Below, piece by piece: positions 1 through 39,270 of a DNA stretch of 39,270 nt. Below the pieces are notes generated by a model. That model did no database searches, was not told where the DNA came from, and saw only the letters and a program-made list of their open reading frames with translations. Source of the DNA: Escherichia phage 285P. The position numbers were made by a program, and so were the translations under genes. The stretch lies in the sequence record NC_015249.1. The stretch is one strand, 5' to 3'. Within the stretch, counting starts at the first letter, position 1; every line of letters starts with the position of its first letter.

Positions 1-145
1 TGCTTATGTTTTCAGTGACAATAGGCTTCGTCCAAAGGGGAATCACTATCTTACTCTCTTTATCAGTCTCTGAGTAATGAGAGAGACAAGTAGAATCGAC
101 TGAGTGCCTATAGTGCCTTAAAGGTGGCTGATAGTCAATAGCCTT

Positions 146-168
146 TAATGCGACTCACTATTGAGAGA
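146..168 (+). promoter_or_regulatory. T7-type phage promoter, left-most (phiOL-like); TAATGCGACTCACTATTGAGAGA
   Basis: Seen in sequence: 17/23 core match to T7 consensus TAATACGACTCACTATAGGGAGA, located upstream of the host early promoters as phiOL is in T7. Confidence 0.55.
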
Positions 169-200
169 AATACTGCTAATGGTCATTCTCTCTTTATGTC

Positions 201-251
201 TACTATAAGAGACTATAAGACCACTTAAAGAGACTTTGAGATTCTTTAAGA
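201..251. repeat. left-end array of ~10-bp direct repeats (ACTATAAGAG x2, ACTTAAAGAG, ACTTTGAGAT, TCTTTAAGAT)
   Basis: Seen in sequence: five tandem decamer-like repeats just upstream of the first TTGACA promoter; analogous to the short repeats near T7 genome ends. Confidence 0.5.
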
Positions 252-258
252 TTGAGGG

Positions 259-288
259 TTGACATTGATAATAGCTTATGAGACTATA
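259..288 (+). promoter_or_regulatory. candidate host sigma70 early promoter (TTGACA, 17-bp spacer, GACTAT)
   Basis: Seen: consensus -35 TTGACA with a non-canonical -10; position matches the T7 A1/A2/A3 cluster to the right of phiOL. Confidence 0.4.
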
Positions 289-393
289 GCAACCGTTGAG
301 AGACACAACGCTACCAACTACTAGACAAGACCACGAGTTATCTAGTAAAGCTGAAGGGTCTCAAGTAGTCATCAACCAGACATACGAAAGTAG

Positions 394-422
394 TTGACTC
401 AACGAAAGCAATAACGTAGTAT
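394..422 (+). promoter_or_regulatory. candidate host sigma70 early promoter (TTGACT, 17 bp, TAGTAT)
   Basis: Seen: -35 TTGACT and -10 TAGTAT with 17-bp spacer. Confidence 0.5.
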
Positions 423-488
423 AGCAGTCGTCAACAACTGGTCGCCCTCTGAAACAACATGAGGTGTCACGGTGAGAAACAAAAGTAG

Positions 489-518
489 TTGACAAGTAGC
501 AACAACAAGATGTAAGAT
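489..518 (+). promoter_or_regulatory. candidate host sigma70 early promoter (TTGACA, 18 bp, TAAGAT), A2-like
   Basis: Seen: -35 TTGACA and -10 TAAGAT; TAAGAT is the -10 I recall for T7 A2. Confidence 0.5.
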
Positions 519-636
519 GTACGACATGCAGTAAGGGTGTAGGGATAGGAACCGAGAAACCTGCCCGTGACCCGCCAAGGATAAGGCACTAGCCGTGAGT
601 CGAATTCGGTCACTCATCGCATAAAAGAATAACAGG

Positions 637-665
637 TTGACAGTCTCCTTTAAAAACTGTAAGCT
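637..665 (+). promoter_or_regulatory. candidate host sigma70 early promoter (TTGACA, 17 bp, TAAGCT)
   Basis: Seen: consensus -35 with weak -10. Confidence 0.35.
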
Positions 666-741
666 GTACCGGAAACATACATAACGTTCTTGTGAAGTCC
701 CACACTGAAAGGGACTCGGTGCTAACAAACCTGCACTTAAA

Positions 742-859
742 GCTCTTTAACAATTTGGACAATAGCACTCTTGAGATGGCGGCACTAGCGATTAACTCAA
801 GGTGACTCGAAAGAGAAGCCTTTATGATAATCACTGTAACCAACATCGAGGCAATCATC
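742..859 (+). other. gene 0.3 leader region, T7 R0.3-like (CTCTTTAACAAT...AACTCAAGG...CCTTTATGATA)
   Basis: Mixed: strongly resembles my recollection of the T7 gene 0.3 leader/RNase III R0.3 region; not verified. Confidence 0.4.
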
Positions 860-1318
860 ATGATTCACACTAAAGAGCAAGCTAACGTTTTCTATGTACT
901 GGTAAGCGCATTCCGTTCTAACCTCGACGATGAGGTCAACATGAGTCGCCACCGCCACATGGTTAACAACCTGCGCAACGCACCGGGTCTTTATGGTAGC
1001 GTTGAGTCTACCGATTTAACTGGCTGTTACCGCGAAGCCATCTCAAGTGCACCAACTGAAGAGAAAACAATCCGTGTACGTTGTAAAGACAAGGCACAGG
1101 TTCTCAATGTCGCACGTCTGGCATGTAATGAGTGGGAACAAGATTGCGTACTGGTCTATAAGTCACAGACTCACACGGCTGGATTAGTGTACGCTAAAGG
1201 CATCGACGGGTACAAAGCTGAACGTCTGCACGGTAGCTTCCAGCGCATCCCTAAAGGTGCACCAATCCAAGGCTGCTTCACGGTTGACGAGTTCGGCAAA
1301 TACTGGCAGGTAGCATAA
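860..1318 (+). CDS. 0.3: S-adenosylmethionine lyase (T3 gene 0.3-type SAMase), anti-restriction
   Basis: 152 aa from internal Met of ORF 824-1318 (MIHTKEQANVFYVLVSAFRSNL...CFTVDEFGKYWQVA); length and sequence match my recollection of T3 SAMase; not acidic like T7 Ocr. GAGG RBS upstream. Confidence 0.75.
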   Translation: MIHTKEQANVFYVLVSAFRSNLDDEVNMSRHRHMVNNLRNAPGLYGSVESTDLTGCYREAISSAPTEEKTIRVRCKDKAQVLNVARLACNEWEQDCVLVYKSQTHTAGLVYAKGIDGYKAERLHGSFQRIPKGAPIQGCFTVDEFGKYWQVA

Positions 1319-1319
1319 C

Positions 1320-1517
1320 ATGGTCGCACTCTTTGTAATCACAATGTACGCTCTGATTGGGGCGTACTTCCTGAGAGACTTCAAGCGTGGTCTGGTTATA
1401 CACAAAGCTAACTTCTCGCACCTGAAGTATGGCTTTCTACCACGATTCACAGTCCGTGAACGCAACGGGCGCTTTAAGGCTAACAAGGTTGGTATCTTCT
1501 ATGTTGCAACACATTAA
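1320..1517 (+). CDS. small early protein with N-terminal hydrophobic helix (gene 0.4-0.6 region)
   Basis: 65-aa ORF starting 1 nt after the SAMase stop; N-terminal VALFVITMYALIGAYFL segment; no recognised homolog. Confidence 0.35.
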   Translation: MVALFVITMYALIGAYFLRDFKRGLVIHKANFSHLKYGFLPRFTVRERNGRFKANKVGIFYVATH

Positions 1518-1621
1518 ACGCAATGTCGGCTTCTACATGGTCTTCGTTGTGTGGCCTACGCTCTGTATTATCTTCATGAAATAACACTCTCACAATCTTC
1601 TCTCTTAAAGGACACAATCTA

Positions 1622-2719
1622 ATGAACTACACCGACATTCAGGCACGTCTGGCAATCATCAAGTCTCTCCCGATTAGCGAACTGGACGAGCGCCAGCCTC
1701 TTCTGGTTGCACTGGCTGCTGACATCGTGAACGGTGAAACGTGTGATGGTAACGACACCGATGGCTCGAACGGCTTGGAGTATCAGGACTGGTGGCACAC
1801 CTTGGGCGCACTCATGCGTGATGCAGGTTTCCACATGTTAGGCAATGGTCACTTCAGTGCGGCCTACTCGCACGAAATGTTACCGGGTCGAGTTATCAAG
1901 GTTGGCTTTAAGAAAGAGGATTCAGGCGCTGCATACACTGCATTCTGTAGGATGCACCAAGGTAGAGCGGGTATCCCTAACGTCTATCACGTAGCACGTC
2001 ATGCAGGTTGTTATACGGTTGTTCTTGACAAGCTGGTAGCATGTGACCGCGATAATTATGACCATGAGGTATACGCTGACCTCGCACGTTACTTTGTGGA
2101 GTCGGATTGCCATGACGCAAGCGACTTTGCACCGGGTGACTACGAGTTCATCGAGACCTGCAAAATGATTCGTGAGTTCTTCAAAGGGATTGCATCTTTC
2201 GACATGCACAGTGGGAACATTATGTTCTCTGAAGAGGGCACACCATACATCACTGACCCGGTTAGTTTCTCACATGACCGTGAACGTGAGGACGGTTTCC
2301 CTCTGGACCCTGAAGCACTGCTGGCTGAGGTCGAGGCTGTAGCGCAAGAACGCATGATTGAACGTTGCCGCAACCGCAAGGCCAAGTGTGACCCTAACGG
2401 CTCCTTTCAGGTTAACCGCAAGGCCGCAATGAAACGCCGCAAGCGTAACCGTAAGTTACGTGCTAAACATGCAGCGGAAGGAATGCACCAGTTTGTCAAA
2501 GGGCGGCTTGAGCGTAGAGCTATTGACCGAAATGAACGCCGTGCTGAGATGTTCATGGGGTCTGCATGGCATTACGCATGGTTGCATAATGGTAACGCAA
2601 CGTTCCGCAAGGTTGAACAAGTGAACGGCCTCAAGTGGCAACTAGGGGACCGCCTAGCAATCCAAGCGGGTCTGCCTCTGAACATTGACAAGTTACTTGA
2701 CGCACAACTGCAAGGCTGA
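1622..2719 (+). CDS. 0.7: gene 0.7 serine/threonine protein kinase / host transcription shut-off protein
   Basis: 365 aa; conserved blocks vs T7 gp0.7 (LGNGHFSAAYSH, VIKVGFKKEDSGAAYTAFCRM, DMHSGNIMFS, YITDPVSFS). Confidence 0.9.
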   Translation: MNYTDIQARLAIIKSLPISELDERQPLLVALAADIVNGETCDGNDTDGSNGLEYQDWWHTLGALMRDAGFHMLGNGHFSAAYSHEMLPGRVIKVGFKKEDSGAAYTAFCRMHQGRAGIPNVYHVARHAGCYTVVLDKLVACDRDNYDHEVYADLARYFVESDCHDASDFAPGDYEFIETCKMIREFFKGIASFDMHSGNIMFSEEGTPYITDPVSFSHDREREDGFPLDPEALLAEVEAVAQERMIERCRNRKAKCDPNGSFQVNRKAAMKRRKRNRKLRAKHAAEGMHQFVKGRLERRAIDRNERRAEMFMGSAWHYAWLHNGNATFRKVEQVNGLKWQLGDRLAIQAGLPLNIDKLLDAQLQG

Positions 2720-2733
2720 TAAGGTGTATCTTC

Positions 2734-2758
2734 AAGGTCGGCACTGACTGCTGGCCTT
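2734..2758 (+). promoter_or_regulatory. RNase III-type hairpin between 0.7 and gene 1 (R1-like)
   Basis: Seen: AAGGTCGGCAC/loop/TGCTGGCCTT forms a ~10-bp stem with G-U pairs; same position as T7 R1. Confidence 0.4.
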
Positions 2759-2792
2759 TATAGATAAACTTTCTTAACAACGTGAGGCAACA

Positions 2793-5444
2793 ATGACTAA
2801 CGTAATCAACGCACCAAAGAACGACTTCTCTGACATCGCTAACGCAATCATGCCATACAACATTCTGGCTGACCATTACGGCGCACAGCTTGCAGCTACG
2901 CAGTTACAGCTTGAGCACGAAGCGCACACTGAGGGTGAGAAGCGTTTTCTTAAGGCAATGGAACGTCAAATCAAAGCGGGTGAGTTCGGTGATAACGCAG
3001 TGGCTAAACCGCTCCTGTCATCTCTCGCACCGAAGTTTATCGAAGCGTGGAACACTTGGTTCACCGAGGTGGAAGCGAAGCGTGGCAAGCGTCCAGTAGC
3101 CTACAATCTGGTACAGAAGGTTGCACCTGAAGCGGCAGCTTTCATCACACTGAAGGTCACACTCGCTTGCTTGACGAAAGAAGAGTTCACCAACCTGCAA
3201 TCGGTCGCCACTAAGATTGGTCGCAGTATTGAGGATGAACTGCGTTTTGGTCGCATCCGTGACGAAGAAGCGAAGCACTTTAAGAACCACGTACAGGAGG
3301 CACTGAACAAGCGCGTTGGTATCGTCTACAAGAAAGCATTCATGCAAGCCGTAGAGGGCAAGATGCTTGATGCTGGTCAACTGCAAACCAAGTGGACTAC
3401 ATGGACACCTGAAGAATCAATTCACGTTGGTGTGCGCATGTTGGAACTGCTCATCGGGTCTACTGGTCTCGTTGAGTTACACCGCCCGTTCGCTGGTAAC
3501 GTTGAGAAGGATGGCGAGTACATCCAACTGACCGAACAATATGTAGACCTGCTGTCTAAACGTGCTGGTGCACTGGCTGCAATCGCTCCGATGTATCAGC
3601 CTTGCGTGGTCCCTCCGAAGCCTTGGACTTCTCCGGTTGGTGGTGGCTATTGGGCTGCTGGTCGCAAGCCTCTCTCTCTGGTTCGTACTGGTTCCAAGAA
3701 GGGACTTGAGCGTTACAACGATGTGTACATGCCTGAAGTTTACAAGGCCGTGAACATCGCACAGAATACTCCTTGGAAGATTAACAAGAAGGTTCTGGCA
3801 GTGGTCAACGAGATTGTGAACTGGAAGCATTGCCCGGTTGAAGATGTTCCTGCTCTGGAACGTGGTGAACTGCCTGTCAAACCTGAAGACATCGACACGA
3901 ACGAGGCATCTCTCAAAGCGTGGAAGAAAGCGGCCTCCGCAATCTACCGCAAAGAGAAGGCACGAGTGTCACGCCGCATGAGCATGGAGTTCATGTTAGG
4001 TCAGGCCAATAAGTTCGCACAGTTCAAAGCTATCTGGTTCCCAATGAACATGGACTGGCGCGGTCGTGTGTATGCTGTGCCGATGTTTAACCCGCAAGGC
4101 AACGACATGACCAAAGGCTTGCTGACGCTCGCTAAAGGTAAACCAATCGGTGTCGATGGGTACTACTGGCTGAAGATTCACGGTGCTAACACTGCTGGCG
4201 TGGACAAGGTGGACTTTGCAGAACGCATCAAGTTCATTGATGACAACCATGAGAACATCATGAGCGTAGCTGCTGACCCGATTGCTAACACTTGGTGGGC
4301 CGAGCAAGACTCTCCGTTCTGCTTCCTCGCGTTCTGCTTCGAGTATGCAGGTGTGCAACACCACGGGATGAACTACAACTGCTCTCTTCCGCTGGCGTTC
4401 GATGGTAGCTGCTCCGGTATTCAGCACTTCTCCGCGATGCTCCGTGATGAGATTGGTGGTCGTGCGGTTAACCTGCTGCCGAGCAAGGAAGTACAGGACA
4501 TCTACCGCATCGTTGCGGAACGTGTGAACGAAATACTGAACCAAGATGTTATCAACGGGACCGACAACGAAGTAGAGACCGTGACCAATAAGGACACCGG
4601 AGAAATCACTGAGAAGCTCAAGCTGGGAACTAAGGAACTGGCTGGTCAATGGTTAGCATACGGTGTTACTCGTAAGGTGACTAAGCGTTCCGTTATGACC
4701 TTGGCGTATGGTTCCAAAGAGTACGGCTTCCGTGACCAAGTGCTAGAGGATACCATTCAGCCAGCTATCGACGATGGCAAGGGCTTGATGTTCACTCAAC
4801 CGAACCAAGCGGCTGGCTACATGGCTAAACTGATTTGGAACGCGGTAACGGTGACAGTGGTCGCAGCGGTTGAAGCAATGAACTGGCTGAAGTCTGCGGC
4901 TAAACTTCTAGCTGCTGAAGTCAAGGACAAGAAGACCAAAGAGGTTCTCCGTAAGCGCTGTGCGGTACATTGGGTTACTCCTGATGGCTTCCCGGTCTGG
5001 CAGGAATACAAGAAGCCAGTACAGACCCGCTTGAACCTGATGTTCTTAGGCCAGATTCGTCTACAGCCTACCGTGAACACCAACAAGGATAGCGGGATTG
5101 ATGCTCGTAAACAGGAGTCAGGTATCGCACCTAACTTTGTTCACTCAATGGATGGTAGCCACCTGCGCATGACCGTGGTTCGCTCCAACGAGGTCTACGG
5201 TGTGGAATCGTTCGCACTGATTCACGACTCCTTTGGTACTATCCCTGCTGATGCTGGCAACCTGTTTAAAGCAGTGCGTGAAACGATGGTGAACACCTAT
5301 GAAGAGAACGATGTACTAGCAGACTTCTATGAGCAATTTGCTGACCAGTTGCACGAATCACAGCTTGACAAGATGCCTGAGATGCCAGCTAAAGGTTCTC
5401 TGGACCTGCAAGAAATCCTTAAGTCAGACTTTGCGTTTGCCTAA
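2793..5444 (+). CDS. 1: T7-type single-subunit DNA-dependent RNA polymerase
   Basis: 883 aa (same as T7 RNAP); long identical stretches to T7 gp1 as recalled (PMFQPCVVPPKPWT, DGSCSGIQHFSAMLRDE, HDSFGTIPADA, C-terminal FAFA). Confidence 0.97.
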   Translation: MTNVINAPKNDFSDIANAIMPYNILADHYGAQLAATQLQLEHEAHTEGEKRFLKAMERQIKAGEFGDNAVAKPLLSSLAPKFIEAWNTWFTEVEAKRGKRPVAYNLVQKVAPEAAAFITLKVTLACLTKEEFTNLQSVATKIGRSIEDELRFGRIRDEEAKHFKNHVQEALNKRVGIVYKKAFMQAVEGKMLDAGQLQTKWTTWTPEESIHVGVRMLELLIGSTGLVELHRPFAGNVEKDGEYIQLTEQYVDLLSKRAGALAAIAPMYQPCVVPPKPWTSPVGGGYWAAGRKPLSLVRTGSKKGLERYNDVYMPEVYKAVNIAQNTPWKINKKVLAVVNEIVNWKHCPVEDVPALERGELPVKPEDIDTNEASLKAWKKAASAIYRKEKARVSRRMSMEFMLGQANKFAQFKAIWFPMNMDWRGRVYAVPMFNPQGNDMTKGLLTLAKGKPIGVDGYYWLKIHGANTAGVDKVDFAERIKFIDDNHENIMSVAADPIANTWWAEQDSPFCFLAFCFEYAGVQHHGMNYNCSLPLAFDGSCSGIQHFSAMLRDEIGGRAVNLLPSKEVQDIYRIVAERVNEILNQDVINGTDNEVETVTNKDTGEITEKLKLGTKELAGQWLAYGVTRKVTKRSVMTLAYGSKEYGFRDQVLEDTIQPAIDDGKGLMFTQPNQAAGYMAKLIWNAVTVTVVAAVEAMNWLKSAAKLLAAEVKDKKTKEVLRKRCAVHWVTPDGFPVWQEYKKPVQTRLNLMFLGQIRLQPTVNTNKDSGIDARKQESGIAPNFVHSMDGSHLRMTVVRSNEVYGVESFALIHDSFGTIPADAGNLFKAVRETMVNTYEENDVLADFYEQFADQLHESQLDKMPEMPAKGSLDLQEILKSDFAFA

Positions 5445-6105: not shown

Positions 6106-6149
6106 AGTTAAACTCAAGGTCATCTACATGGTGGCCTTCATGATTAACT
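6106..6149 (+). promoter_or_regulatory. conserved RNase III-type hairpin element, copy 1 (R1.1-like)
   Basis: Seen: AGTTAAACT-CAAGGTCATC-loop-GGTGGCCTT-CATGATTAACT; inner 9-bp stem, outer AGTTAA/TTAACT stem; near-identical copies at 6623 and 13599. Confidence 0.55.
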
Positions 6150-6179: not shown

Positions 6180-6329
6180 ATGCGTACCAACTTTGAACCA
6201 ACCACTAAGCGCAACAACGTAATCAATGAACACGGTGCTGAATGGCAGGAACGTAAAGACCGCATGAAGAAACGCCACAAGACACAACGTGGCAACGCTG
6301 AGAAACGTAATTGGAAGGAGGCACTCTAA
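6180..6329 (+). CDS. 1.1: gene 1.1 small basic protein
   Basis: 49 aa (MRTNFEPTTKRNNVINEHGAEWQERKDRMKKRHKTQRGNAEKRNWKEAL); basic, resembles T7 gp1.1; stop overlaps the gene 1.2 ATG. Confidence 0.6.
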   Translation: MRTNFEPTTKRNNVINEHGAEWQERKDRMKKRHKTQRGNAEKRNWKEAL

Positions 6330-6622: not shown

Positions 6623-6666
6623 AGTTAAACTAAAGGTCATCTTAATGGTGGCCTTTGTGATTAACT
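6623..6666 (+). promoter_or_regulatory. conserved RNase III-type hairpin element, copy 2 (R1.3-like)
   Basis: Seen: AGTTAAACTAAAGGTCATCTTAATGGTGGCCTTTGTGATTAACT. Confidence 0.55.
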
Positions 6667-13598: not shown

Positions 13599-13643
13599 AG
13601 TTAAACTAAAGGTCATCTTAACGGGTGGCCTTCGTGATTAACT
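13599..13643 (+). promoter_or_regulatory. conserved RNase III-type hairpin element, copy 3 (R4.7-like)
   Basis: Seen: AGTTAAACTAAAGGTCATCTTAACGGGTGGCCTTCGTGATTAACT. Confidence 0.55.
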
Positions 13644-35333: not shown

Positions 35334-35595
35334 CGATAAATCATTAATCCAATTCCTTGAGATGCTGGATACTGAGATGGCTCAACGTATGCTGAAAGAC
35401 CTTCAGGATGACGAGAAGCGCACACCTCAACTTTATAACGCTATCGGGAAACTGCTTGAACGCCATAAGTTCCAAGTCTCCAAGTTACAGCCAGACCGTA
35501 ACATCCTTGGTGGACTGGCAGATGGACTCGAAGAGTACCAGAACATGGTAGGTGCCGATGGTCTCACTGAGGATGAGAAGTACACGCTTAACTGA
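35326..35595 (+). CDS. 18: terminase small subunit
   Basis: 89 aa; KSLI.FLEMLDT.MAQRML.DL.D.E.R.PQLYNAI.KLLERHKFQ match T7 gp18. Confidence 0.9.
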   Translation: MSNDKSLIQFLEMLDTEMAQRMLKDLQDDEKRTPQLYNAIGKLLERHKFQVSKLQPDRNILGGLADGLEEYQNMVGADGLTEDEKYTLN

Positions 35596-35606
35596 TGGTA
35601 ATACTC

Positions 35607-35633
35607 AAGGCCCACTACATCTAGTGGTCTTTA
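35607..35633 (+). promoter_or_regulatory. hairpin AAGGCCCACTA-CATC-TAGTGGTCTTT (possible RNase III/processing site, R18.5 position)
   Basis: Seen: 6-bp perfect stem with AAGG...CTTT flanks reminiscent of the conserved element. Confidence 0.3.
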
Positions 35634-35694
35634 TGAATTATCAACACAACTCACGGTGACGCTACGTGAAATCTGAAAATACAGGAGGGTAGTT

Positions 35695-39225: not shown

Positions 39226-39270
39226 TGGGTTAACTCTAGGTGTTACCACTAGATATGGTGCTTAGTGATA

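Follow-up and report, generated by a model that had tools for sequence, protein, structure and literature searches.

The early anti-restriction region of Escherichia phage 285P: a predicted T3-type SAM lyase gene behind a leader conserved among T7-group phages

Gene 0.3 and the early promoters

The window analysed here is the whole 39,270-nucleotide sequence of Escherichia phage 285P (NC_015249.1), numbered from its first letter. No convincing gene was found between positions 1 and 860, and gene 0.3 (860-1318, + strand, its stop codon ending at 1318) comes first downstream of the early host promoters. Its 152-aa product matches the Pfam family PF23780 (S-AdoMet_lyase) over profile positions 1-132 of 133 (E 7.8e-44, 149.3 bits, where the cut-off is 28 bits) and aligns without gaps and over its full length to the S-adenosylmethionine lyase (SAMase) of phage T3, 136/151 residues being identical (90%). 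The solved T3 SAMase chains PDB 7OCK/8BB1 match at E 5e-92, and gp0.3 of phage BA14 has the same amino-acid sequence (100% identity). No similarity was seen between 285P gp0.3 and T7 Ocr (BLASTP E = 39), nor was an Ocr found by tblastn in positions 1-3000. The two proteins also differ in charge, as 285P gp0.3 is basic (pI 8.27, D+E 17, K+R 19) whereas T7 Ocr is acidic (pI 4.05, D+E 34, K+R 6). Judged from its sequence, gene 0.3 of 285P encodes a T3-type SAM lyase and not Ocr. An earlier note on this DNA had described the product as a 152-aa non-acidic protein matching T3 SAMase rather than Ocr and had proposed its alignment with the T3 gene 0.3 product as a check; both the description and the alignment hold. 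The feature is in itself already known, the protein being BA14 gp0.3 and the division between Ocr and SAMase by genus having been published: at the gp0.3 locus Ocr is found in Teseptimavirus and SAM hydrolase in all other Studiervirinae genera tested (BASEL paper, PMC8594841). In RefSeq (NC_003298, NC_011040 and others) the SAM lyase is misnamed 'SAM-dependent methyltransferase', and the T7-type RNA polymerase 'N4-like RNA polymerase'.

The residues known to be important in T3 SAMase are retained. Both catalytic residues, E68 and Q94, are present in 285P gp0.3, and an E68Q/Q94A mutant of the T3 enzyme is inactive (bioRxiv 10.1101/2023.02.27.530186). The MetK-contact residues T4, E6, N9, Q103, T104, H105, and T106 are all kept; T4, N9, Q103, T104, and H105 lie at the MetK interface and are strictly conserved in T3-like SAMases (bioRxiv 10.1101/2023.02.27.530186). 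A single change, F3 to H, separates the N-terminal tail from that of T3. There is also an internal in-frame start at Met28 (ATG 941-943, + strand) preceded by GAGG at 932-935. It is equivalent to the start of T3 gene 0.3B, the T3 record containing an 'in-frame internal initiation' CDS (982-1359) that begins at codon 28, and Met28 and its Shine-Dalgarno sequence are kept in 285P.

Gene 0.3 is followed by gene 0.6 (1320-1517). T3 has the RNase III site R0.5 immediately behind gene 0.3; no site of this type was found at that place in 285P. A 51-aa ORF (1429-1584) in a different frame overlaps gene 0.6 at its end. It is reminiscent of T7 0.6B and T3 0.65 but showed no homology.

Four early host (sigma-70) promoters driving gene 0.3 are placed at 254-668 on the + strand by positional homology to the 'host RNAP promoter' annotations of BA14 (460-496, 595-631, 685-722, and 834-870). 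Their -35 hexamers, TTGACA or TTGACT, begin at 259, 394, 489, and 636, and a sigma-70 consensus scan recovers 394-422 and 489-518. BA14 shares 98% identity over the stretch 501-700, where the extra sigma-70-like promoter (TTGACA at 636) is found; the stretch is essentially missing from CECAV_058, S523, FE44, and PZJ0206, where only about 20% of it aligns. A phiOL-type phage promoter is found at 146. The right end of 285P (39232-39269) matches sequence at the left end of PZJ0206 (95-132) and CECAV_058 (119-166), ahead of their early promoters; it seems that the 285P record starts slightly inward of the left end and carries the terminal-repeat region at the right end.

Fifteen phage promoters were found, all on the + strand and of T7 type (consensus TAATACGACTCACTATTGGGAGA), and none of the 15 is closer to the T3 consensus. 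The statement in the earlier note that T7-type promoters occur elsewhere in the genome is therefore correct. The annotated phage promoters of BA14 are the same set. The RNA polymerase of 285P is 99% identical to that of BA14, 76.5% to that of T7 and 75.0% to that of T3, and its specificity residues (R746, N748, R756, and Q758) are T7-like and common to BA14. T7-type promoters together with an N748-type specificity loop are a trait of the genus Berlinvirus, and their combination with a SAMase is the normal state of that genus.

The leader, the start codon and proposed expression

Three elements precede gene 0.3. The most upstream is a boxA-consensus element, GCTCTTTAACA (742-752, + strand), a putative NusB/NusE site in the early transcript. 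The gamma-proteobacterial boxA consensus is GYTCTTTAANA (PMC5725501). The element at 742-752 is the only match to this consensus in the 39 kb of 285P, where 0.15 matches would be expected by chance, and it is located downstream of the host promoters on the transcribed strand. The early regions of T7, T3, and Berlinvirus phages that were compared (14/14) each have exactly one match, whatever gene comes next, and the distance from it to the first RNase III site downstream is 50-116 nt in every case. A boxA has probably been noted before for T7; no paper describing such an element in T7-group leaders was found in the literature library searched.

The second element is a hairpin of the RNase III type, R0.3 (787-835, + strand). 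It has a lower stem (787-793/829-835), an upper stem (799-808/813-822) with a GAAA loop (809-812), and two invariant internal-loop motifs, AACTCAAGG at 794-802 and CCTTTATGAT at 819-828. Three lines of evidence place it. The hairpin aligns with the stem_loop at 822-875 of T3, which is annotated as 'RNase III recognition site R0.3'; the minimum free energy (MFE) fold of the 285P leader itself holds the same helices; and the structure is supported by covariation. Over 16 sites from six phages 93.4% of cells were paired, compared with 29-48% in slid controls, compensatory changes were present in 6 of 17 pairs, and none of 500 shuffles reached the score. The closure of the upper stem in 285P is GGT..GCC as in T3, whereas T7 has GGG..CCC. 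No Rfam family matched positions 1-3000 at E <= 1, and none exists for the R0.3 site.

In T7 the motif CCTTTATGA begins at 884 and at 1462. T7 R0.3 and R0.5 are reportedly cleaved at 890 and 1468, on the 3' side of the final U in CCUUUAU (Dunn & Studier 1983), and these positions are consistent with the two motif starts. By homology, RNase III would cut the 285P transcript between 825 and 826. The same motifs mark additional RNase III-type sites in 285P at 6111-6144, 6628-6661, 13604-13638, and 35590-35637, corresponding to motif matches in BA14 at 6305, 6825, 13575, and 36106. On the T7 map these four would presumably be R1.1, R1.3, R4.7, and R18.5.

The third element is a Shine-Dalgarno sequence, GAGG (848-851, + strand), located 8 nt upstream of the ATG at 860 and aligning with the Shine-Dalgarno sequences of T7 and T3 gene 0.3. 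In all 14 relatives boxA, R0.3, and the Shine-Dalgarno sequence form a conserved leader unit, whatever gene comes after it.

The leader motif GCTCTTTAACAATNTGG was also used to scan IMG/VR. Among the matches listed, 125 occurrences were examined, with those in 285P, T7, T3, and BA14 counted among them, and the R0.3 motif was present in 13. The other 112 listed occurrences had no R0.3 motifs nearby; the contigs carrying them do not look T7-like and were not used for the survey of payload genes described below. None of the 112 adjoins rRNA landmarks. Occurrences lacking R0.3 have recurring contexts, e.g., GACGCTTAGCTCTTTAACAATCTGGTCCCC; they are probably boxA in another setting, perhaps the boxA or nut sites of phages from other groups.

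An upstream ATG at 824-826 (+ strand) is in frame with gene 0.3 and gives an ORF of 164 aa in the ORF list. It is conceivable that the true product is this N-terminally extended SAMase with altered MetK binding, and the GenBank record of S523 does annotate the equivalent long ORF (162 aa). We consider this very unlikely, and the 164-aa ORF was rejected as the true product. ATG 824 has no good Shine-Dalgarno sequence and lies within CCTTTATGAT, the invariant RNase III loop motif of R0.3, so that processing would probably cut it off. Its frame is not conserved either: in BA14 the equivalent ATG is not in frame with the gene, and in T3 and CECAV_058 reading from it meets a stop codon. From ATG 860 onward, on the other hand, the MetK-contacting residues are conserved; in T3 SAMase these are the N-terminal residues M1-N9 (bioRxiv 10.1101/2023.02.27.530186). 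The long form of the S523 type probably reflects annotation that was extended too far upstream and not an isoform.

Taken together with what is known of T7 and T3, these features suggest how the region may be expressed. Host RNA polymerase would initiate at the promoters at 254-668, which lie on the DNA that enters the cell first. The boxA at 742-752 in the transcript probably recruits Nus factors and would in this way favour fast, termination-resistant elongation. The R0.3 hairpin (787-835), for which there is covariation support, is probably cut by RNase III in the CCUUUAU|GAU loop, and the cut would strip away AUG 824, giving the transcript a defined 5' end and leaving 860 as the start. Translation would then proceed from AUG 860 behind GAGG, and probably also from Met28. 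The predicted product is a 152-aa SAM lyase with intact catalytic and MetK-binding residues. By homology it would cleave SAM to methylthioadenosine and homoserine lactone, the SAM lyase chemistry being conversion of SAM to methylthioadenosine (MTA) and homoserine lactone (PMC7877911), and it would also bind and inhibit the host SAM synthase MetK. Both MetK inhibition and anti-BREX activity have been described for T3-type SAMase (bioRxiv 10.1101/2023.02.27.530186; PMC8406200). Cleavage of SAM and inhibition of MetK would together starve type I restriction and BREX systems that depend on SAM.

Origin of the leader and gene in 285P

285P is, on sequence comparison, a Berlinvirus (BA14-like Studiervirinae). 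Over its core (2800-27000) it shares 97.5% identity with Enterobacter phage PZJ0206 at 100% coverage and 94.3% with BA14 at 96% coverage, and the taxonomy lines of both phages place them in Berlinvirus.

The leader of 285P does resemble that of T7 gene 0.3, as the earlier note had stated for the ~120 bp upstream of the gene. Over 120 nt the two share 81.8% of aligned columns (z = 15.5 relative to shuffles) and over 160 nt 85.1%. The resemblance is real; it is not specific to T7. The corresponding values for T3 are 86.5% (z = 20.5) over 120 nt and 83.2% over 160 nt, the shuffle z-scores over the 120-160 nt leader range from 15-21 for T7 and 20-24 for T3, and BA14 is identical at 98-99%. Register shifts cause global MAFFT alignment of 3-kb regions to understate how closely the leader matches T7 and T3, and local alignments were used instead. 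Blastn, which the earlier note had proposed as a check of the leader, aligns it to both phages: 285P 696-835 pairs with T7 764-900, and homology to T3 is unbroken over 285P 702-1296, i.e., from the leader through the gene.

From the T7-like leader, the SAMase, and the T7-type promoters it had been concluded that a module was exchanged at the first-injected gene, in other words that a phage of the T7 lineage replaced Ocr with a SAMase derived from T3 at the junction between leader and gene. Some observations are in line with this. The leader aligns to T7 at 82-85% and the promoters are of T7 type; T7 homology is interrupted from about 835 to 1606, where it returns shortly ahead of gene 0.7; and gp0.3 is 90% identical to T3 SAMase, yet the RNA polymerase is only 75% identical to that of T3. 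The comparison with relatives, however, speaks strongly against it. The leader is as near or nearer to T3 as to T7, T3 homology continues through leader and gene, and the annotated R0.3 of T3 lies immediately upstream of T3's own SAMase. The nearest relatives of the leader and of the gene are moreover the same, namely BA14, CECAV_058, S523, and FE44 (92-99%). At the junction a poor match (43-71% identity to these four relatives) is confined to 14 nt located between R0.3 and the ATG, an indel-rich stretch that contains the Shine-Dalgarno sequence. Because boxA, R0.3, and the Shine-Dalgarno sequence are conserved across the whole T7/T3 group, likeness of the leader to T7 is uninformative about chimerism. 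Nor is 285P of the T7 lineage, since its RNA polymerase is about as far from that of T7 (76.5% identity) as from that of T3 (75.0%) and is 99% identical to that of BA14.

The substitution pattern in the gene argues in the same direction. Between 285P and T3 the synonymous divergence is dS 1.10 at gene 0.3 and 1.74 at gene 1, both values being near saturation, and a dS of this size at gene 0.3 rules against a recent transfer from T3. At gene 0.3 dN is 0.09, dN/dS about 0.08, and nucleotide identity 80%; the 90% protein identity to T3 SAMase therefore reflects purifying selection and not recent transfer. With no change of nearest relative at the junction, a dS of 1.10, and a promoter and polymerase type that belongs to the genus, the proposed module exchange does not stand, and replacement of Ocr by a T3-derived SAMase in a T7-lineage phage is hardly credible. 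We find instead that the early region of 285P is the standard anti-restriction unit of a BA14-like Berlinvirus, inherited whole and without any recent swap, to which we give a probability of about 0.9.

This reading of a unit inherited whole is compatible with exchange inside the genus. PZJ0206, the closest relative of the core, has a different allele of gene 0.3 (77% nt, 82% aa), and it is rather likely that the entire early module of 285P (~500-1600) came from a BA14-like Berlinvirus into a PZJ0206-like backbone. The exchanged module would consist of the extra host promoter, boxA, R0.3, the SAMase, and gene 0.6, the SAMase allele being swapped like-for-like. In agreement with this, 501-700 is nearly that of BA14 and scarcely alignable to PZJ0206 (98% identity and ~20% aligned, respectively), while the order is reversed in the core (97.5% to PZJ0206, 94.3% to BA14). 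Gene 0.3 is 98% identical to BA14 and 77% to PZJ0206, gene 0.6 93% and 47%, and from 1601 onward identity to PZJ0206 is back to 86-100%. The dS at gene 0.3 is 0.07 to BA14 and 0.92 to PZJ0206. The case rests on a handful of genomes, and gp0.7 is itself a finer mosaic; nor is such an exchange a true rival to inheritance of the leader and gene as one unit. It points to the two having moved together, which is ordinary mosaicism and not a change from Ocr to SAMase.

Mosaicism on a fine scale is seen in the early region more generally, genes 0.3 and 0.6 being BA14-like and the core PZJ0206-like. The gp0.7 stretch 2401-2700 of 285P is S523-like (95-99%) and only 54-78% identical to BA14.

The useful outcome is thus a negative one, in that a T7-like leader is no evidence for chimerism. 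From the gene that occupies the 0.3 slot one can predict whether type I restriction and BREX are evaded by a T7-group phage. The answer in 285P would be depletion of SAM and inhibition of MetK, as in T3, and this is what is expected for a Berlinvirus. The richer biology lies in other genomes, i.e., in Berlinviruses that have both SAMase and Ocr, or neither.

The payload slot in other Berlinviruses and comparison with known systems

The genes carried in the slot behind the leader were surveyed from GenBank records, as a search for related loci with gp0.7 gave 7 loci only. Among the best 40 matching records, which represent 27 distinct phages after merging of duplicates, a SAMase is annotated in 25. 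SAMase is the only payload in 285P, BA14, CECAV_058, S523, FE44, P483, PYPS50, and PZJ0206. In Escherichia phages P151 (1092-1995) and P694 (1266-2321) the SAMase is followed by a T7-like Ocr and gene 0.4, and in Shigella phage A7 (1075-1946) the order is Ocr and then SAMase. The Ocr proteins of these three dual-payload phages are 92-97% identical to T7 Ocr at the amino-acid level, and copies of the RNase III site lie on both sides of each payload gene. The SAMase of P151 (1092-1547) is missing from its GenBank annotation. Neither SAMase nor Ocr is present in the Yep-phi-type Yersinia phage vB_YpP_T3 (1146-1448; Berlinvirus Yepf), which represents a third state of the payload slot. Its leader is kept, with boxA and R0.3 (87.5% identical to 285P), and is followed by a hypothetical ORF of 76 aa.

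It is tempting to speculate that the repeated RNase III sites around early genes, AACTCAAGG...CCTTTATGAT, also serve as transferable homology arms for anti-defence cassettes, and that 285P represents the minimal state with one cassette, its module of boxA, R0.3, SAMase, and gene 0.6 having been exchanged with a BA14-like phage. We hold this as a tentative idea that is rather doubtful at present. If it were true, T7-group phages could acquire, lose, and rearrange SAMase, Ocr with gene 0.4, and small ORFs as cassettes.

The closest known system is BA14 (EU734171, Berlinvirus). It has the identical 152-aa gp0.3, a gene 0.3 with 98.5% nucleotide identity, and a leader with 98-99% identity, and it shares with 285P the four host promoters, boxA, R0.3, gene 0.6 as the next gene, T7-type promoters, and an RNA polymerase that is 99% identical. 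It differs by small indels between R0.3 and the ATG, including the Shine-Dalgarno sequence, and the first ~216 nt of 285P and parts of gp0.7 (2401-2700) are not BA14-like.

T3 resembles 285P in its SAMase (90% aa), in the E68/Q94 pair and MetK contacts, in the position of boxA, R0.3, and the Shine-Dalgarno sequence, and in the internal start at Met28. It differs in that gene 0.3 is only 80% identical at the nucleotide level (dS ~1.1) and in that its promoters are of the T3 type. In T3 gene 0.3 is directly followed by the RNase III site R0.5, whereas 285P continues straight into gene 0.6. T7 has a homologous leader of boxA, R0.3, and Shine-Dalgarno sequence (82-85% over 120-160 nt), gene 0.3 is likewise the anti-restriction gene that is expressed first, and the promoter consensus and polymerase N748 are alike. 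The payload of T7 is however unrelated, an acidic 117-aa DNA mimic as opposed to a basic 152-aa enzyme, and T7 genes 0.4 and 0.5 are missing from 285P. The dual-payload phages A7, P151, and P694 are, like 285P, Berlinviruses with boxA and an R0.3-type leader, and their SAMase is 88% identical to that of T3; they are set apart by the additional T7-like Ocr before or after the SAMase and by the bracketing RNase III sites, neither of which occurs in 285P.
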